Below, in pieces: positions 5,982 through 34,967 of a DNA stretch of 34,967 nucleotides. How positions within the stretch are numbered: the first letter of the stretch is position 1; every line of letters starts with the position of its first letter. Under the pieces are notes generated by a model that was given only the letters and a program-made list of their open reading frames with translations, was not told where the DNA came from and made no database searches. Source of the stretch: an uncultured Iamiaceae bacterium (GTDB lineage: Bacteria; Actinomycetota; Acidimicrobiia; Acidimicrobiales; DATDAH01); contig CAYTJS010000002.1 of the NCBI GenBank assembly GCA_964438115.1, positions 1 through 34,967 of the forward strand, in the 5' to 3' direction. A program made the translations under genes and the position numbers.

Positions 5982-6881
5982 ATGACCGGGATCTGCGAGG
6001 GACGCGTCGTCATCGTGACCGGGGCGGGACGAGGCATCGGCCGATCACACGCCCTGTTGTTCGCCGCCGAAGGGGCCAAGGTCGTCGTCAACGATCTCGG
6101 CGGCGAGGTGGACGGCAGCGGCCGATCGTCCGGACCCGCCCAGGACGTCGTCGACGAGATCCAGGCGATGGGGGGCCAAGCGGTCGCCAACGCCGACAAC
6201 GTCGCCGACTGGGACGGGGCGCGGAGCCTCATCGGCACCGCGGTCGAGACCTTCGGCGGGCTCGACGTCCTCGTCAACAACGCTGGCATCCTGCGGGACC
6301 GGATGCTGGCCAACATGACCGAGGACGAGTGGGATTCGGTCATCAACGTCCACCTGAAGGGGACCTTCGCCCCGGCCCGCTGGGCCGCAGCCCACTGGCG
6401 GGACCGGGCCAAGGCCGGCGAGGAGAACGATGCCCGCATCATCAACACCAGCTCCGCGTCAGGTCTGTACGGCAACCCCGGGCAGACGAACTACGGCGCG
6501 GCGAAGGCCGGGATCGCCTCGTTCACGGTCATCGCGTCCCGTGAGCTCGACCGCTACGGCGTCACGGTCAACGCCATCGCCCCGGGTGCCAGGACTCGCA
6601 TGACGGCGCCCCTCGGTTTCGGCGGCGAGCCGGAGGCTGGCTCGTTCGACGCGTTCGCCCCGGAGAACATCTCCCCGCTGGTGGTGTGCCTCGGGAGCAG
6701 CCAGTGCCGGACCGTGACCGGGCGGGTCTTCGACGTCGCCGGCGGAAAGGTGAGCGTGGCCGAAGGCTGGAGCCACGGCCCATCGGTCGACAAGGGCGAT
6801 CGCTGGGAGCCGGCCGAGCTCCTCCAGGTGGTTCCCGATCTCGTGGCCAAAGCGGCCCCGCCGGCCTCGATCTTCGACTGA
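5982..6881 (+). CDS. MFE-2/HSD17B4-type short-chain dehydrogenase, probable (3R)-hydroxyacyl-CoA dehydrogenase
   Basis: ORF 5982..6881. GAGGAGGA lies 9 nt upstream. Motifs: TGAGRGIG, VVVNDLGG...DGSG...VVDEI..GG.AVAN, NNAGILRD, SSASG, YGAAK. This is near-colinear with my recollection of the N-terminal dehydrogenase domain of peroxisomal MFE-2. Confidence 0.85.
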   Translation: MTGICEGRVVIVTGAGRGIGRSHALLFAAEGAKVVVNDLGGEVDGSGRSSGPAQDVVDEIQAMGGQAVANADNVADWDGARSLIGTAVETFGGLDVLVNNAGILRDRMLANMTEDEWDSVINVHLKGTFAPARWAAAHWRDRAKAGEENDARIINTSSASGLYGNPGQTNYGAAKAGIASFTVIASRELDRYGVTVNAIAPGARTRMTAPLGFGGEPEAGSFDAFAPENISPLVVCLGSSQCRTVTGRVFDVAGGKVSVAEGWSHGPSVDKGDRWEPAELLQVVPDLVAKAAPPASIFD

Positions 6882-6914
6882 GGAGCTCCGAAGCCGATTC
6901 GGCGCCGGAGGCCC

Positions 6915-8003
6915 ATGGACGCGACCGCGCTGGTGCTGGAGGGTCCCCGAGCACTCCGGGAGCGGGTCATTCCGCTTCCGGTGATCGGCGACGACGACGC
7001 GCTGCTGCGAGTCGAGGCGTGCGGCCTGTGCGGTACCGACCACGAGCAGTACAGCGGTCAACTCCATCCCGGCTACCCGTTCATCCCCGGCCATGAGGCC
7101 GTTGGCGTCATCGAGCGCATCGGGTCGGCGGCCGCTGAGCGCTGGGGCGTCGTGCCGGGCCAACGTGTGGCGGTCGAGGTGTTCCGGTCCTGTCGGGCGT
7201 GCGCTGCGTGCCGGGCGGGCCGGTACCGGCGATGCGAGCGCAACGGGCTGGCCACCATGTACGGCTTCGTCTCGGTCGAGACCGGCCCGGGCCTGTGGGG
7301 CGGCTACGCGACCCATCAGTACCTGGCCCCGGATTCGATGGTCCTGCCCGTGCCCGAGACCCTCACCCCAGCAGTGGCGACGCTCTTCAACCCCCTGGGG
7401 GCCGGCATCCGTTGGGGCGCCACCGTTCCTGCCACGGGGCCGGGCGACGCGGTCGCCGTCCTCGGCTGCGGCGTGCGAGGGCTGTCGGCCGCCGCGGCCG
7501 CCAAGGAGGCCGGTGCCGACTTCGTGATGGTCACCGGCGCCGGTGACCGCGACCGGCCCCGTCTCGAGGCAGCACCGGCCTTCGGCGCGGACCTGGTCGT
7601 CGACGTCACCGCTGTGGACCCGATCGAGGCGTTCCGCGGCGCCACCGGACGTCCGGGCGCCGAGGTCGTGGTCGATGTCACCGCCAAGGCTCCAGCGGTG
7701 GTGGCCCAGGCCGTGCAGTTGGCCGCCCCCGGCGGACGCGTCGTCATCGCCGGCACTCGGGGAGGCGGCGGCGCACCGGGCTTCGAGCCCGACCTGGTCG
7801 TGTACAAGGAGCTGCGCATCGAGGGAGCCCTCGGCGTGGACGTGGTGGCGTACCGGGCCGCGCTCGACCTGCTCGCCTCCGGCCGCTACCCGTTCGCCGA
7901 GCTCGACCGGCTCACGGTGGGCCTCGATGGCGTCGAGGGCCTGCTTCGCACCATGGCCGGGGAGGGGGACACACCACCCATCCACGGCGTCGTAGCCCCC
8001 TGA
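6915..8003 (+). CDS. Zinc-dependent alcohol dehydrogenase (MDR family)
   Basis: ORF 6915..8003. Motifs: catalytic Zn CGLCGTDHE and GHEAVG, structural Zn cluster CRACAACRAGRYRRC, NAD(P) Rossmann VLGCGVRG. Confidence 0.88.
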   Translation: MDATALVLEGPRALRERVIPLPVIGDDDALLRVEACGLCGTDHEQYSGQLHPGYPFIPGHEAVGVIERIGSAAAERWGVVPGQRVAVEVFRSCRACAACRAGRYRRCERNGLATMYGFVSVETGPGLWGGYATHQYLAPDSMVLPVPETLTPAVATLFNPLGAGIRWGATVPATGPGDAVAVLGCGVRGLSAAAAAKEAGADFVMVTGAGDRDRPRLEAAPAFGADLVVDVTAVDPIEAFRGATGRPGAEVVVDVTAKAPAVVAQAVQLAAPGGRVVIAGTRGGGGAPGFEPDLVVYKELRIEGALGVDVVAYRAALDLLASGRYPFAELDRLTVGLDGVEGLLRTMAGEGDTPPIHGVVAP

Positions 8004-8134
8004 CCCGTCGTGGGGACCCCGTGGCCTCGGGGGAGCTCGAGCAGCCGAGCTATGGCGTCCGAGACGATATGTGTGTTATGTTTCGTCGACTCGGGAGTCC
8101 GACTGCCCACGCCCGAACGAGAGGACGCCAGACC

Positions 8135-9310
8135 GTGACCAGCCAGCTCCGTGGTGCAGCGGCGATCGTCGGCGCGGTGGACGCCGTCTCACCCACCGGT
8201 CAGCTCGACCGCACCGACGCCCAGCTCGAGGTCGAGATGGTCCGGGACGCCCTGGATGACGCCGGGTTGTGCATCGATGACGTCGACTGCGTGATGTCGA
8301 CCAGCGGGATGATGGCGTCGCTGGACCTCGGCGAACGCCTCGGCGTGCGGGGACGGTTCACCGATTCGACCATGACCGGCGGCTCGAGCTTCGAGGTGCA
8401 CGTGGAGCACGCGGCCGCAGCCATCGCCGCGGGTCTGTGCGAGGTGGCGGTCATCGTGTACGCGGCGACGCCGAGAAGCGGCAAGAACCCCTTCGCCGGA
8501 GGCGGTCCCGGCATGGGTGCGATGGACTCGGCACTCTTCCAGTGGGACCTGCCCTACGGGTTGGGCCTTCCGGCGGCGAGCTACAGCCTCGCGGCCCGAC
8601 GCCACATGCACGACTACGGCACGACGAGCGAGCACCTGGCGCAGATCGCGGTGTCGTTCCGGCAGTGGGCGGCGAAGAACGCGAACGCGTACCACCAGGA
8701 GCCGATCACCGTCGAGGATGTCCTCGCGTCGCCGATGGTGGCTGAGCCGCTCCACAAGCTCGACTGCTGCCTCGTCACCGACGGGGCGGGGGCGCTGGTC
8801 GTCACCTCGGCGCAGCGAGCCGCCGACCTGGCCCGACCACCCGTGTACGTGCTCGGCGCCGGCACCGCCCACACCCATGGGATGTCGATCTCCCAGATGG
8901 GTGACCTCACCACGACTGGTGCCGCGGTGTCGGGCCCCCGAGCCATGGCCATGGCGGGCATCACGCCCGCCGACGTCGACGTGGTCGAGTTGTACGACAG
9001 CTTCACGATCACCGCCCTCATGACCCTCGAGGACCTCGGCTTCTGCCAGAAGGGCGAGGGAGGCGAGTTCGTCGCCGACGGTCGGCTCGGGCCGGGTGGC
9101 GCGCTGCCCACGAACACCAACGGCGGCGGGCTGGCATACACCCATCCCGGCATGTACGGGATGTTCATCCTCGTGGAGGCGGTTCGCCAGCTCCGAGGCG
9201 ACGGTGGGGACCGGCAGGTCCCGGGAGCCGAGATCGCCCTCGCCAACGGCTGCGGGGGCGTGCTCTCCTGCACCTCCACCATCGTCCTCGGCACCGAGGC
9301 AACCCGTTAG
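8135..9310 (+). CDS. Thiolase-superfamily lipid-transfer-protein (Ltp/SCP2-thiolase-like) protein, DUF35 partner
   Basis: Lies within ORF 8021..9310. The GTG at 8135 is ~10 nt after GAGAGGA. Thiolase-fold N and C halves are present (AAIVGAVD..., ELYDSF, NTNGGGLAYTHPG). 391 aa. A DUF35 gene follows directly. Confidence 0.82.
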   Translation: MTSQLRGAAAIVGAVDAVSPTGQLDRTDAQLEVEMVRDALDDAGLCIDDVDCVMSTSGMMASLDLGERLGVRGRFTDSTMTGGSSFEVHVEHAAAAIAAGLCEVAVIVYAATPRSGKNPFAGGGPGMGAMDSALFQWDLPYGLGLPAASYSLAARRHMHDYGTTSEHLAQIAVSFRQWAAKNANAYHQEPITVEDVLASPMVAEPLHKLDCCLVTDGAGALVVTSAQRAADLARPPVYVLGAGTAHTHGMSISQMGDLTTTGAAVSGPRAMAMAGITPADVDVVELYDSFTITALMTLEDLGFCQKGEGGEFVADGRLGPGGALPTNTNGGGLAYTHPGMYGMFILVEAVRQLRGDGGDRQVPGAEIALANGCGGVLSCTSTIVLGTEATR

Positions 9311-9318
9311 GAGCGAGC

Positions 9319-9723
9319 ATGCCGCGCATCGATCCGCCAGTGACCCCCCTGGCCGAGCCGTTCTGGGAGGCCACACGACGCAAGGAGCTCGTCGCGCAGC
9401 GGTGCGACACCTGCGACCGCTTCGTGTGGTACCCGCGCGAGGCGTGTCCGGGTTGCCTCTCGGGTCAGCTCCGGTGGGCGCCGCTCTCCGGAGCGGGGAC
9501 GATCTACACGTTCAACGTGATGCACAAGCCGGGCAACCCCATGATGGCCGACGAGGTGCCCTACGCCATTGCGCTGATCGATCTCGACGAGGGCCTGCGG
9601 ATGACCAGCAACGTCGTCGGCGCCGAGCTCGAGACGCTGCGCTGCGGCCAGCGGGTGACCGTCGACTGGTCGGTGCCGATCGCCGACGGTCGGAACCTGC
9701 CGGTGTTCCGCCTCACCGACTGA
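9319..9723 (+). CDS. DUF35 OB-fold/Zn-ribbon protein (thiolase-associated)
   Basis: ORF 9319..9723. AGGAG lies 5 nt upstream. It has a CxxC...CxxC ribbon (CDTCDRFVWYPREACPGC) followed by an OB-like C-terminus. 134 aa. Confidence 0.85.
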   Translation: MPRIDPPVTPLAEPFWEATRRKELVAQRCDTCDRFVWYPREACPGCLSGQLRWAPLSGAGTIYTFNVMHKPGNPMMADEVPYAIALIDLDEGLRMTSNVVGAELETLRCGQRVTVDWSVPIADGRNLPVFRLTD

Positions 9724-9750
9724 TCGCAACGACGAAACGGGGGAATCGAG

Positions 9751-11295
9751 ATGTACCCAGGCCTTCATGCCACCACCACGCCGGACAAGGCTGCCATCAT
9801 CATGGGCGAGAGCGGGGAGGTGGTCACCTACCGCCAGCTCGACGAGCGATCGAACCAGCTCGCTCGCCTGTGGCGAGACCATGGCCTTCAGCCGGGTGAT
9901 CACGTCGCCCTCTTCAGCGAGAACCAGTCCCGCTACCTCGAGGTCATGTGGGCGGCGCTCCGGTCCGGGCTCTACATCACGACCGTCAACAGCTACCTGT
10001 CCGCTGAGGAGGTCTCGTACATCCTCGAAGACTCCGGCAGCCGGTCGCTGGTCACGACCACGGCCAAGGCCGATGTCGCCGCCGACGCGCTGCGAGACGT
10101 CACGTCGGTCACCCTGCCGCTGCTCATCGGCGACGAGGACGACCGTTTCGAGTCCTACCTCGACGCCGTCGCGACCATGCCCTCGGACCGACTGGACGAG
10201 GAGCCGGCTGGCGAGATGATGCTGTACTCGTCGGGCACGACCGGGCGACCCAAGGGCATCAAGCGCGAGCTGTCGGGTCAGCCGATCGACGGGGGCATGA
10301 TGATCGGGGCGCTGTTGGGCGGCGTCTTCGGCATGGACGCCGAGTCGGTGTACCTCTCGCCGGCACCCCTCTACCACTCGGCGCCGATCGGCTTCAACCT
10401 CGGGGTGCAGGCGCTCGGCGGCACCACGGTCGTGATGGAGAGGTTCGACCCCGTCGAGGCGCTCCGTCTCATCGAGGAGCACCGAGCCACCCACTCCCAA
10501 TGGGTGCCGACCATGTTCGTCCGGATGCTCAAGCTCCCCGAGGACGCCCGTGCCGCCTCCGACGTCTCCTCGATGCAGGTCGCCGTCCATGCTGCCGCGC
10601 CTTGCCCCGTCGAGGTCAAGCGGCAGATGATGGACTGGTGGGGTCCCGTACTGTGGGAGTACTACGCCGGCACCGAGTTGAACGGCTTCTGCCTGGTGAA
10701 GCCCGACGAGTGGCTCCAACGCCCGGGCACCGTCGGCAAGCCACTCATCGGTGAGATCCACATCCTCGACGCGGCGGGCGATGAGGTCCCTGCCGGCGAG
10801 GCCGGCACCGTGTACTTCGGTGGCGGTCCCGCCTACGAGTACCACAATGCTCCGGAGAAGACGGCGGCGTCGAAGGACCCGAATGGCCATGGCTGGACGA
10901 CCCTGGGCGACGTCGGGTACCTGGACGACGACGGATGGCTGTTCCTGACGGACCGGAAGGCCTTCATGATCATCTCGGGCGGGGTGAACATCTACCCCCA
11001 GGAGGTCGAGGACTGCCTCGTCATGCACCCCAAGGTGGCCGATGTGGCGGTCTTCGGGATCCCCGACGACGAGATGGGTGAGCAGGTCATGGCGGTGGTG
11101 CAGCCGGCCCCGGGCGTCGAAGCCGGCAGGGAGCTGGAGGGCGAGCTGCTGTCCTTCACCCGGGAGCACATCGCGCACTACAAGTGCCCCAAGAAGGTCG
11201 AGTTCCTCGACGAGCTGCCCCGGTTGCCCACCGGCAAGCTGTACAAGCGCAAGCTGCGCGACGAGTACTGGCAGGGCCACGGCACCCGCATCTGA
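9751..11295 (+). CDS. Acyl-CoA synthetase (AMP-forming, FadD-like) 1
   Basis: ORF 9751..11295, 514 aa. Motifs: AMP-binding YSSGTTGRPKG, YYAGTE, GDVGYLDDDGWLFLTDRK, C-terminal PTGKLYKR. Confidence 0.9.
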   Translation: MYPGLHATTTPDKAAIIMGESGEVVTYRQLDERSNQLARLWRDHGLQPGDHVALFSENQSRYLEVMWAALRSGLYITTVNSYLSAEEVSYILEDSGSRSLVTTTAKADVAADALRDVTSVTLPLLIGDEDDRFESYLDAVATMPSDRLDEEPAGEMMLYSSGTTGRPKGIKRELSGQPIDGGMMIGALLGGVFGMDAESVYLSPAPLYHSAPIGFNLGVQALGGTTVVMERFDPVEALRLIEEHRATHSQWVPTMFVRMLKLPEDARAASDVSSMQVAVHAAAPCPVEVKRQMMDWWGPVLWEYYAGTELNGFCLVKPDEWLQRPGTVGKPLIGEIHILDAAGDEVPAGEAGTVYFGGGPAYEYHNAPEKTAASKDPNGHGWTTLGDVGYLDDDGWLFLTDRKAFMIISGGVNIYPQEVEDCLVMHPKVADVAVFGIPDDEMGEQVMAVVQPAPGVEAGRELEGELLSFTREHIAHYKCPKKVEFLDELPRLPTGKLYKRKLRDEYWQGHGTRI

Positions 11296-11317
11296 CCCGC
11301 CGTGGCGTCAGGGAACC

Positions 11318-11923
11318 TCAGGCGGGCTCGTTGACCGCCCCACCGTCGGCTCTCTCGGGAACGGCGCCGTCCGGTGGCCACGGCTCGACGCCGTCTTCGA
11401 GGGGGACCTCGAGGGACCGGAGCAGCTGCGCGAACATCGACCAGTTGCCGATGGCGATGACCACCTCGACGCGGGCCCGCTCGTCGGGCACGCACACCTC
11501 CAGCTCGGCCCACGTCTCGGCACTGATCGCTCCCTCGCCGAGGGTCTCGTCGGTGGCGGCGAGCACGGCACGATCGGCCCGGTCGAGGCGATCGCTGCCC
11601 TGCCAGTCTCGAACGGCGAGGAGGTCGTCGGCCGGGATCTCCAGCAACCGCGCCACCCGCCAGTGCTGGGTCCACTCGTACACCGAGCCCTGACGCCAGC
11701 CGATGCGCATGATGATGAGCTCCCGCAGGCGGGTGTCGAGGGCGCCCTCCCACAACAGCTGGTGCAGGAGGCCGTTGACGCGAGCCGCCAGGTCCTCATG
11801 GCGGAGGAGCACCCTGAACACCGAGAGGTCGGCCATGCCCTTCGACACGCCGACCCGCTCCGCCGCGGCTCGGGCGACATCGCTGGCGAGCATCGGGATC
11901 CGGGCATCGGGCGGCGAGGTCAT
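11318..11923 (-). CDS. Carboxymuconolactone decarboxylase (AhpD-like) family protein
   Basis: Lies within ORF 11318..12055. The ATG at 11923 is preceded by GGGAGGG. The RELIIMRIGWRQGSVYEWTQHWRVA pattern is typical of the CMD family. 201 aa. Confidence 0.7.
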   Translation of the reverse strand: MTSPPDARIPMLASDVARAAAERVGVSKGMADLSVFRVLLRHEDLAARVNGLLHQLLWEGALDTRLRELIIMRIGWRQGSVYEWTQHWRVARLLEIPADDLLAVRDWQGSDRLDRADRAVLAATDETLGEGAISAETWAELEVCVPDERARVEVVIAIGNWSMFAQLLRSLEVPLEDGVEPWPPDGAVPERADGGAVNEPA

Positions 11924-12026
11924 CGGCGCCTGCCCTCCCGCACGTCGGAGCGAGGATCGGTGGCGGTCATGTTCCTCCACGGTGGCTGGGGTGTCGAGCG
12001 GCGATCGGTGACACAGTACCGCCAGG

Positions 12027-12055
12027 TTGTCTTGCCGGGGAACACATGACAGCAT
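12027..12055 (+). promoter_or_regulatory. Putative promoter: TTGTCT (-35) N14 TGA CAGCAT (extended -10)
   Basis: Read directly. The spacer is 17 nt and TGn precedes an ANNNT-type hexamer. The same bipartite TTGTCT-N14-TGACAG architecture recurs at 18962-18990. It lies ~95 nt upstream of the NMO-family gene. Confidence 0.35.
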
Positions 12056-12149
12056 TCGTCTCGTCTACCGGCCGGGAGGTGCACCGCACCATGATCCGGC
12101 CCTCACGTCCACAGATCGAGGAGACCGGCGCCCCGGCGCCGAATCACGG

Positions 12150-13133
12150 ATGATCCAGACCAGGCTGACCGACCTGCTCGAGTGCGAGCACCCGGTGATG
12201 CTCGCCGGGATGGGCGGCGTGTCCTATGCCGAGCTCGTGGCGGCGGTCAGCGACGCCGGCGGCTTCGGCACGTTGGGTGCAGCTCCGATGGGCCTCGACC
12301 GCATGAAGGCCGAGATGGCGGAGGTGCGGGAACGGACCGACCGACCCTTCGGCGTCGACCTGCTCACCGCGCTGCCCGGGGGCATGGAGGAACAGGTGGC
12401 CGCCATCATCGCCGGCGGCGCCTCTGTCTTCGTCGCCGGCCTGGGCGTCCCCCGGGACGTGGTCGAGCAGTGCCACCGGTCCGGCGTGCTGGTGGTGAAC
12501 ATGTGCGGCAAGGTCCGCCACGCGGTGGCGGCCGTGGAGGCAGGCTGCGACATCGTCGTCGCGCAGGGCACCGAAGCGGGTGGCCACACCGGCACCGTGG
12601 CCACCCTGCCCCTCGTCCCCCAGATCGTCGACGCCATCGGCGACCGCGTTCCCGTCGTCGCCGCCGGCGGCATCGTCGACGGCCGCGGGCTGGCTGCCGC
12701 CTTGGCCCTCGGCGCCGACGGGATCTGGGTGGGCACGCGCTTCATCGCCACACCCGAAGCTCACGTCGTAGCCGGGTACCGCGAGGCGGTGATCGCGGGA
12801 CGCGACGAGGACACGGTGATCACGCGGGCCTACACGGGCAAGACCTTGCGCGCCGTTCGCAACACCTACACCCGGCACTTCGAGGACCACCCAGAGGAGC
12901 TGCAGCGGTTCCCCGACCAGATCGGTCGGTCCCTGGCCGACGGCGCCATGCACCTCGGCGCGGCGCCCGACACCGACGGCATCGATCCCGACCGGGAGTG
13001 CTACGCGGCCGGCCAGGGCATCGGCGGAATCGACGACGTGGTGCCCGCCGGCGAGGTCGTTCGTCAGATCATGGAAGAGGCCGAGCGCGAGCTCAACCGC
13101 CTTGGCGCCCTGCCATCGGTGGCTGAGTCATGA
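12150..13133 (+). CDS. Nitronate monooxygenase (2-nitropropane dioxygenase) family FMN oxidoreductase, possibly an enoyl-(CoA) reductase
   Basis: Lies within ORF 12027..13133, ATG at 12150. Motifs: EHPVMLAGMGGVS, VVAQGTEAGGHTG, VVAAGGIVDGRG. 327 aa. Confidence 0.85.
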   Translation: MIQTRLTDLLECEHPVMLAGMGGVSYAELVAAVSDAGGFGTLGAAPMGLDRMKAEMAEVRERTDRPFGVDLLTALPGGMEEQVAAIIAGGASVFVAGLGVPRDVVEQCHRSGVLVVNMCGKVRHAVAAVEAGCDIVVAQGTEAGGHTGTVATLPLVPQIVDAIGDRVPVVAAGGIVDGRGLAAALALGADGIWVGTRFIATPEAHVVAGYREAVIAGRDEDTVITRAYTGKTLRAVRNTYTRHFEDHPEELQRFPDQIGRSLADGAMHLGAAPDTDGIDPDRECYAAGQGIGGIDDVVPAGEVVRQIMEEAERELNRLGALPSVAES

Positions 13134-19005: not shown

Positions 19006-19024
19006 CCGTGCACTCGGAGGGTTC

Positions 19025-20631: not shown

Positions 20632-20633
20632 CC

Positions 20634-22733: not shown

Positions 22734-23097
22734 GCACCCGTTGCGCGACCGAGACCATCACAGCCGCTCGGGCCGGCTCTCCGGGTTCGCGTCCCCGATC
22801 GCCCTCGCGCTCGCCGGCACTGCGCTGCTCGCCGCCGGGTACTGGGGGGCGTCTGACACCGTCAGTCCCGGCGACCAGATCCCCTACCTCGCGTCAGGCA
22901 CGATCCCAGGCGCAACGATGGTGATCACCGCCGCCGTGCTGCTGCTCCGGATCGAATCCCGACGCGCCCGCGACGAGGCAGCCGGCGTCGCCGCACGCCT
23001 CGACGCCCTCGTCGAGTGGCTCGTCGGCGCGAGCGACGCACCCGAGGAGCCAGAGGAAGACCGCACGACCGGGACCGACGCACCCCTGCGCTCGTGA
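22714..23097 (+). CDS. Small hypothetical membrane protein (2 predicted TM helices) inside the Liv operon
   Basis: ORF 22708..23097. The ATG at 22714 has GGAG 6 nt upstream, and 22708 is an alternative start. GC3 is high. The hydrophobic stretches are FASPIALALAGTALLAAGYWG and IPGATMVITAAVLLLRI, followed by an acidic tail. It overlaps the permease end and the LivG start (GTGA). Confidence 0.5.
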   Translation: MSQDLAEHPLRDRDHHSRSGRLSGFASPIALALAGTALLAAGYWGASDTVSPGDQIPYLASGTIPGATMVITAAVLLLRIESRRARDEAAGVAARLDALVEWLVGASDAPEEPEEDRTTGTDAPLRS

Positions 23098-25917: not shown

Positions 25918-25980
25918 CCACGAGGCGTCGTCCTCGGGTCCTGTGGCCGCGGGTCGACGGACGAGCTCGGCCACGCGGTT

Positions 25981-25998
25981 GACGCCCCCGTCGGCGTC
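25981..25998. terminator. Hairpin GACGCC-cccgtc-GGCGTC between convergent genes
   Basis: Perfect 6-bp stem with a 6-nt loop, in the 126-nt gap between the binding-protein gene (+) and ACAD-3 (-). There is no U-tract. Confidence 0.2.
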
Positions 25999-26043
25999 GG
26001 GCACAACGGCCCGGGATGGACCCTGGGGCTGGCCTCAGTTCGT

Positions 26044-27303: not shown

Positions 27304-27535
27304 CGCTCGACGCGGTGAGCGCTCGGGCCCGGGCGAGAAGCAGCTCGCTCGGTACGCGCTCCGGGATCCCAGGAAATGCCGGAGGTCGGGGCCGGATCGA
27401 CGTGCGAGTCATCCGGGGGCGAGCCTGTCATCTTCGATCGTGTCAGCAACGTTGGCTCCAAAGTGCGGCACGTCCGCATGCCGGGACCACGGCAAGGTGG
27501 CGAGTAGCTGGACACAGTACACGCTCCGTCGCAAG

Positions 27536-27598: not shown

Positions 27599-28816
27599 AT
27601 GACGACTGCTCAGGAAGTCCTCGACTGGGCGCGTGACTTCGACATCTTCGACCTTGGCTACATCGCCGAGCCGGAGCGCATGTGGCAGGAGCAGCGCGAA
27701 CGGTGCCCGATCGCGTTCACCGAGCGCCGTTCCCGTACCTGGCTCCCGGTCCGCTACGACGACATCGCCGACATCGCCCACGACGTCGAGCGCTTCTCGT
27801 CCAGCGACGTGGCCGTCGTGACCATCACCCCGCCCGAAGAGCGGGCCCTCACCGCCGGCGTCCCGCCGATCAGCTCCGACCCTCCGGTGCACACCTGGGC
27901 CCGCCGGTTGCTGCTCCCGGCATTCGGACCGTCGGCCGTCGCGGCGATGTCGCCGATCACGCAGCGCCTCGCCAACGAGCTGATCGATGACTTCGCACAC
28001 GTCGGCCGAGCCGATGCAGCCGTCGACTATGCCCAGCACATCCCGGTGCGGATCATCGCCACCATGCTGGGGATCCCGTTGGAGGACGAAGGTCGCTTCA
28101 CGGAATGGGTCGTCAGGACCCTACAGGAAGGCTTCCACAACATCCACGGCGCCCGCGAAGCGATCGACGAGCTGATCGTCTACTTCGCAGAACGTGTGGC
28201 CGAACACCGAGACACGCCCGAGGGCGAGCGACCGGACGACCTGCTGACCTTGCTGATCGAGTCCGAAATCGACGGCGAGCCGATCGAGGACATGCATCTC
28301 CTCGGCACCTGCTTCCTGCTCCTGGTTGCGGGCATCGACACGACCTGGAGCGCCATCGGATCGGGCCTCTGGCACCTCGCCGCCAATCCCGACGACCAGC
28401 ATCGCCTGCGCGAGGATCCGTCGTTGATGGACACCGCCGTCGAAGAGGTGCTGCGAATGTACAGCCCCGTGACCATGGCCCGGGCAGTCACCGAGGACAT
28501 CGAGTACAACGGCTGCCCGATGAAGGCCGGCGACAAGGTGCTCATGGCTTTCCCCGCCGGCAATCGCGACCCCGCGCAGTTCGAGCGAGCCGACGAGTTC
28601 GTCATCGACCGGAAGCAGAACCGCCACTTCGCATTCGGCTCCGGCATCCACCGATGCCTGGGTTCCAACCTCGCCCGCATGGAGCTGAAGGTGGCGCTCG
28701 AGGTCTTTCTCGAGCGGGTGCCGTTCTTCGAGCTCGAGGATCCCGAGAGGGTCACCTGGGTCGGTGGGCAGGTCCGAGGGCCGCGGAGCATCCCCATCGT
28801 CTTCAGCCCTGCCTGA
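27599..28816 (+). CDS. Cytochrome P450 monooxygenase (paralog 2)
   Basis: Lies within ORF 27260..28816. The ATG at 27599 follows GGGGGGA. Motifs: FGSGIHRCLG, LLLVAGIDTTW, EEVLR. By eye it is about two-thirds identical to P450-1. 405 aa. Confidence 0.92.
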   Translation: MTTAQEVLDWARDFDIFDLGYIAEPERMWQEQRERCPIAFTERRSRTWLPVRYDDIADIAHDVERFSSSDVAVVTITPPEERALTAGVPPISSDPPVHTWARRLLLPAFGPSAVAAMSPITQRLANELIDDFAHVGRADAAVDYAQHIPVRIIATMLGIPLEDEGRFTEWVVRTLQEGFHNIHGAREAIDELIVYFAERVAEHRDTPEGERPDDLLTLLIESEIDGEPIEDMHLLGTCFLLLVAGIDTTWSAIGSGLWHLAANPDDQHRLREDPSLMDTAVEEVLRMYSPVTMARAVTEDIEYNGCPMKAGDKVLMAFPAGNRDPAQFERADEFVIDRKQNRHFAFGSGIHRCLGSNLARMELKVALEVFLERVPFFELEDPERVTWVGGQVRGPRSIPIVFSPA

Positions 28817-28909: not shown

Positions 28910-30058
28910 TCAGGCTCGCTGCAGGATGTGCACGACGCACACGGAGCCTGCGCCGGCCATGTGGCAGAGGCCGGTCCGCGCCTCGTCGACCTGCCGCCGT
29001 CCGGCCTGGCCCCGTAGCTGGTGGACCGTCTCATGGATCTGCGCAAGGCCCGTCGGTCCGCCCGGGTGGCCTCTCGCTGTGAGTCCGCCGTCGGTGCTGA
29101 AGGGGATCCGGCCACCGATGCTGGTCTCCCCGGCGGCGACCAGCGCGTCGCCCTCGCCGTCGTCGCAGATCCCGAGGAGCTCGTAGTACACCAGCTCCTC
29201 GACCGGAAAGGCGTCGTGGACCTGGACCAAGTCGAGATCCTCCGGCCCGACCCCGGCCTGTTCGTAGGCGGCGGCCGACGTGTCGCGTGTCATCTGCGCA
29301 GGGCCGATGACGGCGCCGAGGAACACATGACCCTCGGTGTAGGTCTCGGACCTCTGCTGTGAGGCCAGGACCTCGATCATCGGGCCGGCGAGCCGCCGGG
29401 CGACTTCTTCGCTGGCGACGATGGCCGCTGCGGCGCCGCCTCCGGCGGCGCACGCCATCTTCGAGGTGTGCGGGTGGGAGATCATCGTCGAGGCGAGGAC
29501 CTCTTCGACCGTCACCTCGTGGTCGGCGCGGCGCTGGGCCATCGGGTTGTGCCGGGCGTGGTTCCAGTTCTTTGCGGCGATGGCGGCGAAGGTCTCCGCG
29601 GTGGTACCGATGTCATGCATGCGCCGGGTGGCCCACATGGCGAAGAAGGCGGCCGGGAGCATGACGTCCTCAGCACCGAGCCCGCGGCGGCGTGACCGGC
29701 CGAGCCCACCCATGCGGTTCATGTCGTCGAAGCCGAGCGCCATCGCCACGTCGGTCCGCCCTCCGGCGACGGCGTGCACCGCCTCCCCGAACGCGCACGA
29801 ACCGGTGGCCGACGCGTTCTCGACGTGGGTGACCGGCAGGCCGGTGAGCCCGAACTCCTTGGCGATGTGCACGCCGGTGGTGATCCCGCCGCCGAGGTAG
29901 CCGTTGTAGAGCGCGCCGACCTCTGGGAACTCGATGCCGGCATCCTCGAGGGCGGCCATGCCGGCCACGTCGGCCATGTCGGCCACCGGGATGCCGTTGT
30001 CGTTGAACGGGTGCATCCCGACGCCGATCACATACACCGCCCGGCCGGGCAGGCTCAT
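28910..30058 (-). CDS. SCP2-thiolase-like (Ltp-type) thiolase-superfamily protein (third pair)
   Basis: ORF 28910..30058, 382 aa. Motifs: VYVIGVGMHPF, VENASATGS (Ser where SCPx has the nucleophilic Cys), HDAF, GGLTARGHPGG. Confidence 0.82.
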   Translation of the reverse strand: MSLPGRAVYVIGVGMHPFNDNGIPVADMADVAGMAALEDAGIEFPEVGALYNGYLGGGITTGVHIAKEFGLTGLPVTHVENASATGSCAFGEAVHAVAGGRTDVAMALGFDDMNRMGGLGRSRRRGLGAEDVMLPAAFFAMWATRRMHDIGTTAETFAAIAAKNWNHARHNPMAQRRADHEVTVEEVLASTMISHPHTSKMACAAGGGAAAAIVASEEVARRLAGPMIEVLASQQRSETYTEGHVFLGAVIGPAQMTRDTSAAAYEQAGVGPEDLDLVQVHDAFPVEELVYYELLGICDDGEGDALVAAGETSIGGRIPFSTDGGLTARGHPGGPTGLAQIHETVHQLRGQAGRRQVDEARTGLCHMAGAGSVCVVHILQRA

Positions 30059-30462
30059 CGGACCGACTCGAACCGGAACGTGACCAGCTCATTGCCCTCG
30101 TCGTCGATGCCGACGGGGAACAAGGTGAGCCCCATCTCCTCGCCGACGGACCAGTCGCCCGGGCTTCCCATCAGGGGGGCCTGGATCCGCACACCCTCCG
30201 GCAGGTCGACCTGCCCGACGGCATAGCCGCCGCCGTCGCCGAAGGAGACCCTTCCCATGCGGGGCACGTGCAGGAACGTCCATGCGTACAGCATTCCGAC
30301 CGGGCTGAGCTCGACATCCTCGACCGCCGTCCGGGTCACCGGGCAGCGCTTGCGGCGGGGCCAGAAGTGGAGCTCGGACGCCGGCGCATGGGAACCCAGC
30401 AGCCGTGGCCGCTCTTCGTCCTGCTCCGGCAGGCGGAACAGGTGCGGATCGGTGGCGATCAT
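30055..30462 (-). CDS. DUF35-like OB-fold protein with degenerate Zn-ribbon (third pair)
   Basis: ORF 30055..30465 begins at TTG, and the ATG at 30462 is the likelier start. GAGGAGGAG lies upstream. The OB-like C-terminus is retained, but only one Cys remains where the CxxC...CxxC ribbon sits in the other two DUF35 proteins. The stop overlaps the thiolase start. Confidence 0.65.
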   Translation of the reverse strand: MIATDPHLFRLPEQDEERPRLLGSHAPASELHFWPRRKRCPVTRTAVEDVELSPVGMLYAWTFLHVPRMGRVSFGDGGGYAVGQVDLPEGVRIQAPLMGSPGDWSVGEEMGLTLFPVGIDDEGNELVTFRFESVR

Positions 30463-30585
30463 CAACTGGTCTACTCCTCCTCGACGTGTCGACGAGCTCC
30501 GGCGCCTGTCGTCGGGTCGCCAGGCACGATACAGGTATCATCTCTTGTCTTGCGCAGGCGGGGGTGGCTGGTTCAGACTGCCGGC

Positions 30586-31425
30586 ATGTCGACACCGCTC
30601 TCGCCTGATCTGGTCGGCCTCGAGCTGCCGCCCGTCGCCACCTCCTGGGACGACAAGGACGTGATGCTCTATGCCCTGGGAGTGGGAGCCCGCCCGCCCG
30701 AGGACCTCGACCACGTGTACGAGGGCCGGGGACCTGTGGTGCTGCCCACCTACGGGGTGATCCCTGGCCTCATGGCCATGGGGTCCCTCGTCGGGCAGGT
30801 CGACATCGACCCAACGATGATCCTCCACGGCGAGCAGTCCATCGCCTGCCACCGCACCATCCCGCCGAAGGCGAACGTCGTCATCGCGGGGCGGATCAAC
30901 GAGGTGTGGGACAAGGGGAAGGCCGCCGTCATCGGTTTCGAGAGCACCGCACGCGATGACGACGGCGACCTGTTCACCGCGGCAGCCACGTTGTTCATCC
31001 GCGGCGCAGGAGGCTTCGGCGGTGACCGAGGACCATCGACCGCCGGCAGGAACGAGCCACCTGACCGCGAGCCCGACGTGGTCGTGCGGTACGAGACGCG
31101 GCCGGAGCAGGCAGCCATCTACCGACTGTCCGGCGATCGCAACCCGCTCCACATCGATCCGGCGTTCGCCGAGATGGCGGGCTTCGACGCTCCGTTCAAC
31201 CATGGCCTGTGCACGTTCGGCTTCGTCGGTCGGGCCGTGCTCGCCGGGGTCTTCGACGGTGACGTGGACCGGTTCGGCGCGCTCGAGGGCCGCTTCGCCG
31301 ACCAGGTCTGGCCTGAGGACGAGATCATCACGAAGATCTGGCGCGACGGCGCTGATGCGCTCGTCGAGGCCTCGACGCAGAAGGGGAACGTCGTGTTGAG
31401 CCAAGCCCGAGCGACACACCGGTGA
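30586..31425 (+). CDS. MaoC-like double hot-dog (R)-specific enoyl-CoA hydratase (hydratase-2 type)
   Basis: Lies within ORF 30268..31425, ATG at 30586. The hydratase-2 motif YRLSGDRNPLHIDPAFA is in the C-terminal half. 279 aa. No SD is visible, so the transcript may be leaderless. Confidence 0.82.
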   Translation: MSTPLSPDLVGLELPPVATSWDDKDVMLYALGVGARPPEDLDHVYEGRGPVVLPTYGVIPGLMAMGSLVGQVDIDPTMILHGEQSIACHRTIPPKANVVIAGRINEVWDKGKAAVIGFESTARDDDGDLFTAAATLFIRGAGGFGGDRGPSTAGRNEPPDREPDVVVRYETRPEQAAIYRLSGDRNPLHIDPAFAEMAGFDAPFNHGLCTFGFVGRAVLAGVFDGDVDRFGALEGRFADQVWPEDEIITKIWRDGADALVEASTQKGNVVLSQARATHR

Positions 31426-32912
31426 GCGTGCACCCCCGGACGCCGGTCCTGGTGGGCGTCGGGCAGGTCACGAACCGCAGCGAAGCGATGGTCGACCCGA
31501 TCACCCTCGCGGCCGAGGCCACCCGAGCGGCGATGGCCGACGCGAGCGGGCGGATCCAGCCGGACACGATCGCGATGCCCGGGACCCTGGCTCCTCGCAC
31601 CCAGAACCCGGCACGGCACCTGGCGGTCGAGCTCGGCCTCGAGGTGAGGCGTCATCTGTCCTCGACTATCGGCGGGAACACCCCGCAATGGCTCGTCGGG
31701 GTGCTCGGCGCCGACATCGTCGCCGGCCGGTGCGACGCTGCGGTTATCGCGGGGGCGGAAGCGGGCGCATCGGCCCGGCGGGCTCGGGAGCAGGGCGTCG
31801 AGTTCCTGACGCCGGGCGCCGTGGAGGGTGAGGACACCGAGATCGGCGACCAACGGTTCGGGGCGTCGCCGCTGGAGTTGGCCGCGGGGCTCGCGCCTCC
31901 GCCGTTCCTGTACCCGATCCTCGAGTCCGCCGTGGCCCACCAGGCGGGGCGCACGCTGGACCAGCAGCGACAGTTCCTTGGCACCTTCATGGCCCCGGCC
32001 ACCCGGGTGGCCGCGTCGCATCCGGACCTGGCCTGGTTCCCTGCCGCCGCCTCTGCGGAGGAGCTGGCCGAGCCGAGTGCGGGCAACCGGATGATCGCCG
32101 AGCCCTACACGAAACGCATGAACGCGATCATTGAGGTCGACCAGGCCGCAGCGTTGATCCTCTGCTCGGCGGAGGCCGCCGATCGGGCCGGAGTCCCCCG
32201 GGAACGGTGGGTCTTCCCGCTCGGTGTCGCCGACCTCAACGACGTCTTCTATCCCGTTCAGCGTCCGGAGCTGCACCGCTCGCCCGCCATCGAAGCCGCA
32301 GGCCGCGCGCTGTTCGAGGGCGTGGGCATCGGAGTCGACGACATCTCCCGCTTCGACCTCTACTCCTGCTTCCCGGTCGCCGTCGAGGTGTCCGCCACCG
32401 CGCTGGGCATCGATCTCGCCGACGAGCGGCCGTTCTCCGTGACGGGCGGGCACGCGTACTTCGGCGGACCCGGGAACAACTACACCACCCACAGCATTGC
32501 GATGCTGGCAACTCAGCTGCGGGAAGACCCGGGGGCCATCGGGCTGACCACGGGCTTGGGCTGGTACGTCACCAAACACTCGATCGGCCTGTGGAGCACT
32601 CGGCCTCCGGCCCGTGGGTTCGTCACGCCGGACCTGGCCGGGGCGCAGGAGCGCATCGACGCCACCTCCCTGGCGCTGGACACCATCCCCACCGAGGGCG
32701 ACGCCATCGTCGACGGGTGGACCATCCTGCACGGGCGCGAGCACGGCCCGGAAGCCATCGTCGCGTATGTGCAGACCGCCGATCGCCGACGCCTCGTGGT
32801 CCGCAATGACGACGCCTCGACCGCCCGGGACCTGTCAGGCGGCACGCTGATCGGCACCACGGTGCGCGTCGTCCCGCAGGCGGATGGCCCCCCGAGCTTC
32901 CGCCTCACGTGA
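31422..32912 (+). CDS. Thiolase-like protein with extra C-terminal beta-barrel-like domain (TLP1-like architecture)
   Basis: ORF 31422..32912 (GTG, with a GTGA overlap to the hydratase), 496 aa. It has a thiolase-fold core (VLVGVGQV..., GGHAYFGGPGNNY) plus a ~95-aa tail ending GTTVRVVPQADGPPSFRL, which resembles the DUF35 OB halves in this window. Confidence 0.65.
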   Translation: MSVHPRTPVLVGVGQVTNRSEAMVDPITLAAEATRAAMADASGRIQPDTIAMPGTLAPRTQNPARHLAVELGLEVRRHLSSTIGGNTPQWLVGVLGADIVAGRCDAAVIAGAEAGASARRAREQGVEFLTPGAVEGEDTEIGDQRFGASPLELAAGLAPPPFLYPILESAVAHQAGRTLDQQRQFLGTFMAPATRVAASHPDLAWFPAAASAEELAEPSAGNRMIAEPYTKRMNAIIEVDQAAALILCSAEAADRAGVPRERWVFPLGVADLNDVFYPVQRPELHRSPAIEAAGRALFEGVGIGVDDISRFDLYSCFPVAVEVSATALGIDLADERPFSVTGGHAYFGGPGNNYTTHSIAMLATQLREDPGAIGLTTGLGWYVTKHSIGLWSTRPPARGFVTPDLAGAQERIDATSLALDTIPTEGDAIVDGWTILHGREHGPEAIVAYVQTADRRRLVVRNDDASTARDLSGGTLIGTTVRVVPQADGPPSFRLT

Positions 32913-32985
32913 GCAACGCACGCAGGTGGCGGCCGTTGTCACCGTCGGGGAAGTCGGGTGGAGCCGCCGCCGAGCGGTCCGAAAC

Positions 32986-33840
32986 ATGACGGCCGTCTCC
33001 GCCCGGATCAGCGTTCATGGGCAGGACGGCGTCGAGTTGGTCGGCGATCGACGGGGAGACCAGTCCGGCCCAGCCGTGCTGCTCCTCCACGGCGCCGGAC
33101 AGACGCGGCACGCCTGGCGCCGCACGACCGACCGCCTCGCCACCGCTGGGTTCTGCACCCTCGCCCTCGATCTGCGCGGCCACGGTGACAGCGACTGGGC
33201 CCTCGACGGCGACTACCGCCGCCAGGCGTTCGCCGACGACCTCGTCGAGGTCCACCGACAGCTCGGTCCGTTCGACGCGATCGTCGGTGCATCGCTCGGA
33301 GGGCTCAGCGCCCTGCTGGCGCACGACCAGCAACCCGGCGGCATCACGGCCAAGCTCGTGCTCGTCGACGTCGCGCCGAGGATCGAAGCCACGGGAGCTG
33401 ACCGGGTCCTCGCGTTCATGGCCGCGCGCCCCGAGGGGTTCGAGACTCTCGAGGAAGCCGCCGAGGCGGTGGCTCGCTACAACCCTCACCGGCCACCGCC
33501 TCGTGATCTCGAGGGCCTGCGCCGCAACCTCCGACAGGGTGCGGACGGCCGCCATCGGTGGCACTGGGACCCTCGCCTGATCGACGGACCGACGAGCCTC
33601 ACCACCGCACGGGACCCTGATGCCCTGCACCGCGCCGCCAGCCGGCTCACCGTCCCCTGCCTGTTGGTGCGGGGCCGCAACAGCGACCTGCTGACGGAGG
33701 ACGGCGTGCGGGAGTTCCTGGCCGCCGCCCCCCACGCCGCCTACGTGGACATCGCCGGCGCCGGCCACATGGTCGCGGGGGACACCAACGATCCGTTCAT
33801 CGACGCCATCGTCGACTTCCTCTCGTCCAACGATCGGTAG
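32986..33840 (+). CDS. Alpha/beta-fold hydrolase
   Basis: Lies within ORF 32884..33840, ATG at 32986. Motifs: LLLHGAGQTRHAW, nucleophile elbow GASLGG, C-terminal GAGHMV. Confidence 0.82.
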   Translation: MTAVSARISVHGQDGVELVGDRRGDQSGPAVLLLHGAGQTRHAWRRTTDRLATAGFCTLALDLRGHGDSDWALDGDYRRQAFADDLVEVHRQLGPFDAIVGASLGGLSALLAHDQQPGGITAKLVLVDVAPRIEATGADRVLAFMAARPEGFETLEEAAEAVARYNPHRPPPRDLEGLRRNLRQGADGRHRWHWDPRLIDGPTSLTTARDPDALHRAASRLTVPCLLVRGRNSDLLTEDGVREFLAAAPHAAYVDIAGAGHMVAGDTNDPFIDAIVDFLSSNDR

Positions 33841-34083
33841 CGACTCCGGGACCCGACCCGCAGACCGGGTCGACGGGGTTCAGGTCTGCGGGCGAGGAGC
33901 CGACGGACGTTGCCCCCCATCACCAGGTCGCGATCGGCCTCGGTCGAACCAGCCAGCAGCTCATTTCGGCAGCGAGGACCCCGATGCCGAGTTCCTCGGG
34001 GAGCTCGGCTTCGACGGGGTGAAGTCCGAGACCGAGCTCATGCGGCTCCTGTGGAAGGCGGCGTTCTCGCCGCGGTTCCACTG

Positions 34084-34578
34084 ATGTTCCTCATGGCAAG
34101 ACTCAAGTCGAACGTCGTGACGCCATCGTGGGGTCGCCGGGCCGTGGGGATCGGGTGGATGGCCGTCATCGTGAGCTTGCTCGCGGTGGTGCCGGTCATC
34201 GCGTGGCTCGCCGTCGTGTTCGGCGTCGGGGTCGGGGGCTACCAGCTCTCGAGCCTGCTGCAGTTCACGGGTGAGCACCGCTGCCTGGCAGAGGCCCCGC
34301 CCGGTGTCCGCCGGTCCGTGGCCTTGTCCCACGGTCGCTTCTGCAGCGAGGCGCCGCCCGCCAAGGGTGGCCTCTGGCCGTGGACGCGGTGGACGGTGCG
34401 GATGCTGAGTTGGCAGCGAGCCAACTACGTCCGCAGCGAACTCATCGCGAGCGGCAAGGACAAGGGCATGGTTGGGACCGGTGTGGTGTCGTCTGACCCG
34501 CGACTCCATTGGCTCACTGCCTTCAATAGGACTTGTCGACGACGCCCACCGGACCCGATCGGTCCCGGAGCACGCTGA
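34084..34578 (+). CDS. Hypothetical membrane protein (orphan)
   Basis: Lies within ORF 33910..34578, with ATGs at 34084 and 34093. The hydrophobic stretch is GIGWMAVIVSLLAVVPVIAWLAVVFGVGVGG. GC3 is high in the first ~130 codons and lower near the end. I recognise no family. Confidence 0.3.
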   Translation: MFLMARLKSNVVTPSWGRRAVGIGWMAVIVSLLAVVPVIAWLAVVFGVGVGGYQLSSLLQFTGEHRCLAEAPPGVRRSVALSHGRFCSEAPPAKGGLWPWTRWTVRMLSWQRANYVRSELIASGKDKGMVGTGVVSSDPRLHWLTAFNRTCRRRPPDPIGPGAR

Positions 34579-34698
34579 CCTGATCAGGAGCTTGACCGTC
34601 CCCGCATCACGGCTGCGAGGGCGTGTCCCATCACAGATCTGCCGCAGCCCCGAGATCGACCGGACCCGCAACGCCACCCGATCAAGGAGAGCAGCGTC

Positions 34699-34967
34699 AT
34701 GTCCACCCTCGCGGACAGCGTCGATGTCGTCATCGGTGTCGACCCGCACAAGCACACCCACACCGCCGCGGTCATCGCCGCCGCCACTGGCAACCACCAC
34801 GGAAGCCGCACCATCAGCGCCGATCCCACCGGGTTCACCGAGATGCTCGCCTTCGCCGGCGACCACGAGGGCAGCCGCTGCTGGGTCATCGAGGGCACCC
34901 AGCCGCAACGACGTGCCGGCCAACTCGGTGCGCAGTACGGCCTTGGCCTTGCGCATCCGACCCTTCA
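34699..34967 (+). mobile_element. IS110-family transposase gene, 5' portion (runs off window; possibly disrupted after ~34896)
   Basis: This ORF is not in the ORF track because it is open to the window end. The ATG at 34699 is 9 nt after AAGGAG. The product MSTLADSVDVVIGVDPHKHTHTAAVI...FAGDHEGSRCWVIEG matches the DEDD N-terminus typical of IS110-family transposases. The sequence after VIEG no longer looks family-typical in this frame. Confidence 0.55.

Follow-up and report, generated by a model that had tools for sequence, protein, structure and literature searches.

A hydratase 2 gene overlapping a TLP1-family gene in an uncultured Iamiaceae bacterium: a candidate hydratase and retro-aldolase module

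In two steroid side-chain hydratase-aldolase complexes, Sal-Shy of Comamonas and Ltp2-ChsH1-ChsH2 of Actinobacteria, the hydratase carries a DUF35 domain, consisting of a zinc ribbon and an OB barrel, that binds the dimeric thiolase-fold aldolase in trans. The bile-acid aldolase CtSal has Gly at the position of the thiolase nucleophile and a motif, Y302-D-C304-Y, in which Tyr302 and Cys304 serve as the catalytic dyad: the substitutions Y302F and C304A/S abolish activity (PMC12329534). The same 2025 study proposed, on the same residue logic, that the Trypanosoma SCP2-thiolase-like protein TbSLP is an aldolase; the thiolase-like proteins of type 1 (TLP1) were outside its scope (PMC12329534). TLP1 is represented by MsTLP1 of Mycobacterium smegmatis (4EGV), whose crystal structure has been available since 2012 with no function assigned: the protein is a monomer without thiolase activity, has a large CoA-lined groove and, on structure-based alignment, shows Gly102 for Cys89, YSCF for NEAF and GGL for GHP (PMC3406046). 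In the searchable literature we found no later work on TLP1, no assignment of its function and no link between its additional barrel and DUF35. Here we analyse a TLP1 gene that overlaps a hydratase gene in a stretch of 34,967 nucleotides from an uncultured Iamiaceae bacterium (contig CAYTJS010000002.1, positions 1 to 34,967; the whole stretch, of about 70% G+C, is termed the window below). We present strong evidence that TLP1 and enoyl-CoA hydratase act together, and propose that they may form a two-step module in which TLP1 is a retro-aldolase. The pair has the following features:

30586..31425, + strand: MFE-2/Hsd4B-type (R)-specific enoyl-CoA hydratase 2, 279 amino acids (Pfam, PDB matches, hydratase-2 motif)
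31422..31425, + strand: GTGA overlap of the TLP1 start GTG with the hydratase stop TGA, translational coupling (sequence)
31422..32621, + strand: TLP1 thiolase-fold domain, residues 1 to about 400 (4EGV match, AlphaFold2 model, Foldseek)
31671..31676, + strand: Gly84-Gly85, Gly85 being the position of the thiolase nucleophilic Cys (alignment to 6ESQ)
32361..32375, + strand: Y314-S-C316-F-P motif, proposed catalytic Tyr/Cys dyad (profile alignment)
32634..32909, + strand: linker helix (about 406-413) and C-terminal OB barrel (about 415-496), TLP1_add_C (Pfam, AlphaFold2, hhalign)

The hydratase reading frame runs from ATG at 30586 to TGA at 31425 and that of TLP1 from GTG at 31422 to 32912, giving a product of 496 amino acids. 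A preliminary description of this DNA, made from the letters alone, had reported a MaoC double hot-dog hydratase overlapping a 496-residue thiolase-fold protein through GTGA, and this is what the sequence contains. A stop/start overlap is common to seven orthologous loci: GTGA in L081-L085, ATGA in L002 and, according to the called gene coordinates, 4 nt in L163. The public gene call for the protein (P0001, 486 amino acids) starts 10 codons late and misses the overlap with the hydratase (31422-31452). The conserved N-terminus, PRTPVLVGVGQ, requires that translation start at GTG 31422 or at a second GTG, 31428, two codons further on; we favour 31422 because the 4-nt overlap is conserved among orthologs.

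Pfam recognizes two domains in the 279-residue protein, MFE-2_hydrat-2_N (PF22622, E 8e-27) and MaoC_dehydratas (PF01575, E 3e-25): an N-terminal non-catalytic and a C-terminal catalytic hot-dog, which make up a complete double hot-dog. Only these two hot-dog domains are detected, and no DUF35 domain. The best solved relative in the PDB is 1S9C, human MFE-2 hydratase 2 (E 9e-54), and 3KHP matches at E 1.5e-48; the hydratase-2 motif YRLSGDRNPLHIDPAFA, with its catalytic Asp and His, can be read intact in the sequence. Judged on its sequence, the protein is a bona fide MFE-2-type hydratase 2.

The 496-residue protein is a clear, bona fide member of the TLP1 family. It matches M. smegmatis TLP1 over its full length (phmmer E 4e-61, about 30% identity), and its residues 412-484 match the Pfam model TLP1_add_C (PF18313; E 6e-8, 29-33 bits against a cut-off of 26.1). 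The AlphaFold2 model, with a mean predicted local distance difference test score (pLDDT) of 90.8, superposes on 4EGV with Foldseek template-modelling scores of 0.84-0.92; the next matches are 6ET9/6ESQ, TbSLP, 7YVY, 4U4E and BbsB, all thiolase folds of the DUF35-associated or SCP2 type. The architecture assigned in the preliminary description, a thiolase fold with an extra C-terminal barrel of the TLP1 kind, is thus well founded. Three replacements that make up the MsTLP1 fingerprint are shared: Gly for Cys89 (G85), YSCF for NEAF (Y314-S-C-F) and GG-x for GHP (G348-G-P). G348 and G349 are invariant in 234 of 234 family sequences and P350 is present in 210. A further MsTLP1 feature, NGG for CxG (with Asn395), is not matched, the window protein having G378-L-G-W; across the family the position equivalent to Asn395 is Leu in 140/234 sequences and Asn in 44/234, which makes this a difference between subclades and not a family-wide one. 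MsTLP1 has the same extra six-stranded barrel, but belongs to a different subclade, and at His437, an invariant residue of the barrel, it has another residue. Membership of TLP1 by itself provides no mechanism. The family is large: an exhaustive search of 1.84 billion representatives retrieved 856 at E<=1e-30. The family has at least 856 clusters at 50% identity, from Actinomycetota, Alphaproteobacteria, Chloroflexota and others. NCBI family models label its members acetyl-CoA acetyltransferase.

Hidden Markov model alignment places G85 opposite the Cys of CASGS in the archaeal thiolase 6ESQ, and profile alignment to solved structures places Y314-S-C316-F opposite LYDCFP of TbSLP, HDCF of 6ESQ and the SCP2-type enzymes, and HDAF of 7YVY. 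G84, G85 and Y-S-C-F-P are invariant in all 234 TLP1-family sequences, down to about 35% identity, and so are N222, R223, P228, Y229, Y164, W205, R281, Y354 and R367. About 20 polar residues of this region are invariant among TLP1 sequences only 35-50% identical, and this is the signature of an enzyme rather than of a scaffold. Because Gly85 replaces the nucleophilic Cys, TLP1 cannot form an acyl-enzyme. The possibility that it is an ordinary thiolase was considered and is ruled out by the Gly at the nucleophile position in 234/234 sequences; the absence of this Cys, suspected in the preliminary description, holds on alignment to solved thiolases. The dyad logic of Sal would apply to Y314 and C316 of TLP1, with Ser replacing the Asp between them. 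One TLP1 representative, P0305, has Y-A-Y-F for Y-S-C-F; its Cys-to-Tyr change recalls the paired tyrosines of Ltp2.

The survey of gene context took in 163 loci of TLP1 homologs: 80 from GTDB genomes, 79 from metagenome contigs and 4 from exact look-ups. In 13 of them a MaoC gene is found no more than 3 kb from TLP1, and about 150 have no MaoC. Conserved MaoC-TLP1 synteny, raised in the preliminary description, is therefore rejected as a trait of the family and is confined to a clade. Among close orthologs of the window gene (TLP1 71-75% and MaoC 82-88% identical to the window proteins), MaoC stands directly upstream, with the GTGA overlap, in all five for which upstream DNA is available (L081-L085); three of these (L083-L085) came from a metagenome scan for close relatives, the remaining matches of which were about 40% identical. 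The flanks of these loci vary: L082 has a divergent Mce operon and L081 (Iamia sp. SCSIO 61187) has DUF445 and major facilitator superfamily genes, so that they differ both from the window and from each other. None of the five close orthologs has Ltp, DUF35 or hydrolase neighbours like those of the window within 5-8 kb, and in L083 and L085 none of the window's neighbours is found within 5 kb.

In more distant loci the hydratase persists or is exchanged. L002 and L163 (TLP1 51% identical) have overlapping genes in the order DUF35-Ltp-MaoC-TLP1, alcohol dehydrogenase (ADH), CMD-FadD-thiolase-like-DUF35-NMO; in L136 MaoC lies 172 nt upstream of a TLP1 that is 37% identical. In L162 (57% identical) an acyl-CoA dehydrogenase gene is followed by one for a crotonase-type enoyl-CoA hydratase and then by TLP1, the crotonase standing in place of MaoC; in eight further loci a related crotonase gene shares the strand of TLP1 and lies 42-278 nt downstream of it. 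Fusions of TLP1 to crotonase occur in four distinct protein clusters among the best 150 of the 856 representatives: TLP1 joined to an enoyl-CoA hydratase domain (ECH) in a protein of 774 amino acids, and SRPBCC-TLP1-ECH proteins of about 990 amino acids in three clusters, one of them from the cultured Actinoplanes aureus. In the fusions P0273 and P0281 the TLP1 part retains Y-x-C-F as well as the Gly at the nucleophile position, and both catalytic Glu residues are still present in the crotonase. Such non-orthologous replacement of the hydratase, together with fusion, argues that TLP1 and enoyl-CoA hydratase act together; the functional link supposed in the preliminary description is thus upheld by three kinds of evidence, the coupling conserved in the clade, the crotonase that replaces MaoC, and the fusions.

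The set P0273 (Actinoplanes aureus, WP_196419043.1), P0266, P0277, P0281 and P0270 comprises SRPBCC-TLP1-crotonase, TLP1-crotonase and SRPBCC-TLP1 arrangements. One fusion is named 'type II toxin-antitoxin system Rv0910 family toxin' in the database, apparently from its SRPBCC domain.

The C-terminal part of TLP1 was compared with DUF35 by structure and by sequence. The two peptides cited in the preliminary description are present, GDAIVDGWTILHG...PPSFRL at residues 426-495 of TLP1 and GAGTIYTFNVMH...LPVFRL in the DUF35 protein encoded at 9319-9723. Modelled alone, residues 405-496 form a beta-barrel behind a helix (AlphaFold2, pLDDT 93.7). A Foldseek search with this isolated barrel returns the C-terminal domain of 4EGV at the top and then generic OB folds (those of telomere, single-strand-binding, tRNA-synthetase and ligase proteins); DUF35 makes its first appearance at rank 44, with BbsA (7PXP_E, E 0.3). 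As proof of DUF35 ancestry the fold search was accordingly discarded, its specificity being no finer than 'OB fold'. Sequence profiles are more discriminating. The window tail has no direct match to OB_ChsH2_C (PF01796) at E<=10, so that a relation to DUF35 becomes visible only through homologs and profile-profile comparison. In a scan of 30 TLP1 tails against 24,736 Pfam models, OB_ChsH2_C matches 10 (best E 5e-6) and is the sole recurring model besides TLP1_add_C; the matches inspected score 15-21 bits, below the Pfam cut-off of 27.1, and lie in a single register, tail residues about 19-80 against model positions 3-63 of 65. With hhalign, a profile of 198 TLP1-tail sequences aligns to one of 75 DUF35 sequences over the whole OB domain with a probability of 85.5% (E 5.7e-6, score 34.6), as against a score of 9 for the reversed profile and 20.7 for the best of 30 column shuffles. 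A global alignment, which is suggestive only, matches the linker helix to the N-terminal helix of DUF35 and leaves the zinc ribbon as a 24-residue gap.

No zinc ribbon is found in TLP1: there is no zf-ChsH2 match, and residues 400-430 contain no CxxC pairs. Nor is there a transitional TLP1 with a ribbon among the longer members P0262, P0269, P0305 and P0337, whose extra length lies elsewhere. The TLP1 barrel is probably homologous to the OB domain of DUF35, with the zinc ribbon absent. The earlier view of the last 95 or so residues as a ribbon-less DUF35 OB domain is therefore supported by the profiles but not by the fold search; structure prediction, proposed then as a check, confidently gave an OB barrel without singling out DUF35. 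After 4EGV, the folds closest to the TLP1 core are those of thiolases that have DUF35 partners, and of TbSLP, as would fit capture of a DUF35 in cis, and the barrel most likely has the structural role that DUF35 has for Ltp2 and Sal. Being fused to TLP1 itself, it cannot tether the hydratase, and the 're-wired' complex of the preliminary description is not implied.

Comparison with described systems places TLP1 among relatives of different kinds. With Sal-Shy and Ltp2-ChsH1-ChsH2 the window pair has in common a MaoC-type hydratase gene adjoining a thiolase-fold gene, Gly at the nucleophile position, a Tyr-x-Cys/His motif and a DUF35-type OB domain associated with the thiolase fold. It differs in that TLP1 itself carries the OB domain, which has no ribbon, in that the hydratase consists of a double hot-dog and nothing more, and in that the characterized TLP1, MsTLP1, is a monomer. 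The motif is YSCF rather than YDCY or YDHF; the second acid is Cys304 in Sal and Tyr344 in Ltp2, and Y314 and C316 of TLP1 align to the motif by way of TbSLP and the SCP2 thiolases. The window pair may thus work like these systems, yet it is not a member of either. TbSLP (5AB4-5AB7), a close structural neighbour after 4EGV (E about 3e-20), shares with TLP1 the lack of a nucleophilic Cys and has YDCF as its motif, but is eukaryotic and has no DUF35 or OB domain. The pairs of stand-alone DUF35 and thiolase, namely archaeal acetoacetyl-CoA thiolase/HMGCS (6ESQ/6ET9), BbsAB (7PXP) and PhlBC, have the folds closest to the TLP1 core, and it is their DUF35 OB domain that the TLP1 tail matches by profile; in these pairs the catalytic cysteines of the thiolase are retained and the enzyme is dimeric, with DUF35 in trans; TLP1 has neither feature.

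Our preferred reading, to which we give a probability of roughly 0.5, is that TLP1 is a retro-aldolase of the Sal kind, self-contained, that takes 3-hydroxyacyl-CoA from the hydratase. The two proteins would form a two-step module for acyl-CoA catabolism: the hydratase would convert enoyl-CoA to 3-hydroxyacyl-CoA, and TLP1 would split the latter in the retro-aldol manner of the steroid aldolase Sal. Tyr314 would be the base that deprotonates the beta-hydroxyl and Cys316 the acid that protonates the enolate; an aldehyde or ketone would result, together with acetyl- or propionyl-CoA, and the carbonyl product might be processed by the zinc-type ADH, aldehyde dehydrogenase, Baeyer-Villiger-type monooxygenase and esterase encoded nearby. 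The OB barrel, derived from DUF35 and deprived of its zinc ribbon, would play a structural role on TLP1 in cis. We infer the chemistry, the substrate and any physical complex of the two proteins; the family, the linkage, the profile similarity and the residue equivalences on which the proposal draws are observed. More tentative, and in our estimate somewhat doubtful, is the extension to the whole TLP1 family as monomeric, self-contained Sal-type retro-aldolases with a DUF35 OB domain captured in cis and interchangeable hydratases, MaoC or crotonase and sometimes fused.

Several observations weigh against the retro-aldolase proposal. Neither Sal (the CtSal entry) nor Ltp2 (6OK1) is retrieved from the PDB by the TLP1 profile at E<=1: TLP1 is a clade separate from both, with sequence similarity below detection by this profile, and the residue equivalence is consequently transitive, by way of TbSLP and the SCP2 thiolases. 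In the motif the Asp of Sal is replaced by Ser, and the equivalence takes in the Gly at the nucleophile position and the Tyr and Cys of the dyad but stops short of Gln161, Gln347 and Gln352 of Sal. The only biochemical result for any TLP1 protein is the absence of thiolase activity. About 140 of the 163 loci have no hydratase neighbour, and many TLP1 genes stand among housekeeping genes. Alphaproteobacterial TLP1 genes lie between glnA/glnB and histidine phosphatase, nnr and tig, and those of Ilumatobacteraceae beside glyA and rpiB, glnA/glnB, nnr, tig, glyA and rpiB being identified by eye from the sequences with no family search; such housekeeping contexts better fit a common small substrate or another reaction than the cleavage of a specialized lipid. 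To these must be added the low rank of BbsA in the barrel search, the decarboxylase activity of TbSLP and the short-chain dehydrogenase/reductase (SDR) discussed below.

TLP1 might work with hydratases and yet carry out some other chemistry: decarboxylation of beta-carboxy or malonyl-type CoA, thioester hydrolysis, isomerization, or the aldol condensation run in reverse so as to supply the hydratase in a biosynthetic direction. Linkage to a hydratase fixes neither the chemistry nor its direction; TbSLP, with its YDCF motif, has a measurable but very low malonyl-CoA decarboxylase activity (PMC12329534); the N-terminal SRPBCC/polyketide-cyclase-like domain of the fusions fits biosynthesis or lipid binding as well; and near TLP1 one repeatedly finds a PaaI thioesterase and a gene of the CMD family. 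Nevertheless, the only thiolase folds of known reaction with Gly at the nucleophile position and Tyr-x-Cys/His are Ltp2 and Sal, both retro-aldolases. No dehydrogenase domain is present in the TLP1-crotonase fusions, a sign that 3-hydroxyacyl-CoA is used directly, and a carbonyl product would suit the ADH and aldehyde dehydrogenase genes that recur as neighbours, so that we regard a different chemistry as rather unlikely.

Adjacency could also reflect nothing but co-expression, with the hydratase and an Hsd4A-like SDR forming a split MFE-2 for (R)-specific beta-oxidation and TLP1 serving elsewhere in the pathway. An SDR resembling the MFE-2 dehydrogenase is indeed encoded in the window (5982-6881), where it could take the hydratase product instead of TLP1, and in L081 and L002 one is found some 2.4 kb upstream of TLP1; the L163 operon has ten genes, which makes adjacency weak evidence of the order of steps, and most TLP1 loci have no MaoC. 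What makes this improbable to us is that the MaoC-TLP1 junction is the only part kept where flanks change, that independent replacement by crotonase and fusion argue for direct partnership, and that the window yielded no thiolase-fold protein whose nucleophilic Cys would allow a normal cycle to be completed. Least of all do we expect the barrel to be an OB fold of the generic kind, sharing no descent with DUF35, and TLP1 to be a non-catalytic binding or scaffold protein, as might be argued from the generic OB domains that precede BbsA, from the failure of the window tail to match OB_ChsH2_C and the sub-threshold scores of the family matches, and from the inactivity of MsTLP1 as a thiolase. Such a view sits badly with the recurrence of OB_ChsH2_C in one register in a third of the tails, with an hhalign score far above those of the shuffles, with the nearest structural relatives of the thiolase domain being partners of DUF35, and with polar residues whose invariance at 35-50% identity is not expected of a scaffold. 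The Sal-like retro-aldolase remains the reading that we prefer.

Around the pair, and elsewhere in the window, lie the following genes:

32986..33840, + strand: alpha/beta hydrolase, possibly co-transcribed; the reading frame possibly starts at 32884, overlapping the TLP1 end (Pfam Abhydrolase_6/1)
30055..30465, - strand: stand-alone DUF35, OB only, zinc-binding cysteines lost (OB_ChsH2_C, E 1.5e-7)
28910..30058, - strand: SCP2-thiolase-like Ltp, partner of the divergent DUF35 (PDB 6HSJ, SCP2-thiolase, E 1e-58)
20224-20631, + strand: canonical DUF35 with zinc ribbon, overlapped (ATGA) by a thiolase-fold protein, the two spanning about 19085-20631
5982..13133, + strand: distant block of the same pathway, with Hsd4A-like SDR (5982-6881), zinc-type ADH, thiolase-like protein and DUF35, FadD, CMD (minus strand) and NMO (Pfam)

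The hydrolase has homologs of 44-48% identity at about 1.3 kb from TLP1 in 14 mycobacterial loci, among L006-L020 and L027, and at 4.2 kb in L035; the mycobacterial loci with TLP1 and hydrolase also have a hot-dog thioesterase of the PaaI type, a TetR regulator and, some of them, a P450. A scan of 30000-34300 found neither promoter nor terminator. In about 20 loci a zinc-type ADH is coupled directly downstream of TLP1 and is 59-70% identical to the window ADH (6915-8003); aldehyde dehydrogenase and flavin-monooxygenase (FMO)-type genes lie near TLP1 in L081 and L162.

The DUF35 protein at 30055..30465 has no zf-ChsH2 match and a single Cys in the ribbon region, and matches a BbsA-like NCBIfam model at E 1.5e-10. 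Its partner Ltp lacks both catalytic cysteines on alignment to 6HSJ, with Ser at the nucleophile position (NASATGS for NNCSTGS) and HDAF for HDCF; this divergent pair (28910-30465, - strand) is catalytically unusual, yet 71-85% conserved in L001 and L002. The stretch of about 19085-20631 (+ strand) encodes a thiolase-fold protein whose nucleophile site reads GG and whose motif, IYDCF, is of the Sal/SLP type; it is joined by an ATGA overlap to the canonical DUF35 and is a candidate for a Sal-type aldolase that has its DUF35 in trans. Downstream of a third thiolase-like protein (8156-9310; GGSS at the nucleophile site, LYDSF) comes a canonical DUF35 (9319-9723), and the two span 8156-9723 on the + strand. 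The window thus has three two-gene pairs of thiolase fold and DUF35, all without a nucleophilic Cys. Altogether 0/4 of its thiolase-fold genes encode this Cys, and no canonical thiolase was recognized in the window.

The genes of the L002/L163 operon sit in the window as two blocks, 5982-13133 and 28910-33840. SDR, ADH, CMD, FadD, thiolase-like, DUF35 and NMO genes are contiguous with DUF35-Ltp-MaoC-TLP1 in L163 and L002; that the window blocks are about 16 kb apart, with one pair inverted, points to rearrangement of an operon. The rest of the window (1-5830 and 14946-27408) is a catabolic island, with a LigB-type dioxygenase, a carboxylesterase, three acyl-CoA dehydrogenases, an FMO or Baeyer-Villiger-type monooxygenase, an amidohydrolase and a second acyl-CoA synthetase. 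Two closely related P450s are encoded at 1623-2870 and 27611-28816. By eye, the genes at about 20700-25917 resemble those of a branched-chain-amino-acid-type ATP-binding cassette transporter, and a truncated reading frame at the end of the window (34579-34965, + strand) resembles the N-terminus of an IS110-family transposase (VVIGVDPHKHTHTAAV).

The TLP1 family is routinely annotated 'acetyl-CoA acetyltransferase', yet its members cannot be thiolases. If the proposal is true, thiolase-fold aldolases, represented by Ltp2 and Sal, would extend beyond steroid catabolism; the extra barrel of TLP1 would be explained as a DUF35 captured in cis; and hydratase-aldolase modules would have been assembled repeatedly, with hydratases of different folds. 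Such modules would shorten acyl-CoA to an aldehyde or ketone and acetyl-CoA without a dehydrogenase and without thiolysis, and retro-aldolases of this type are of interest as biocatalysts.

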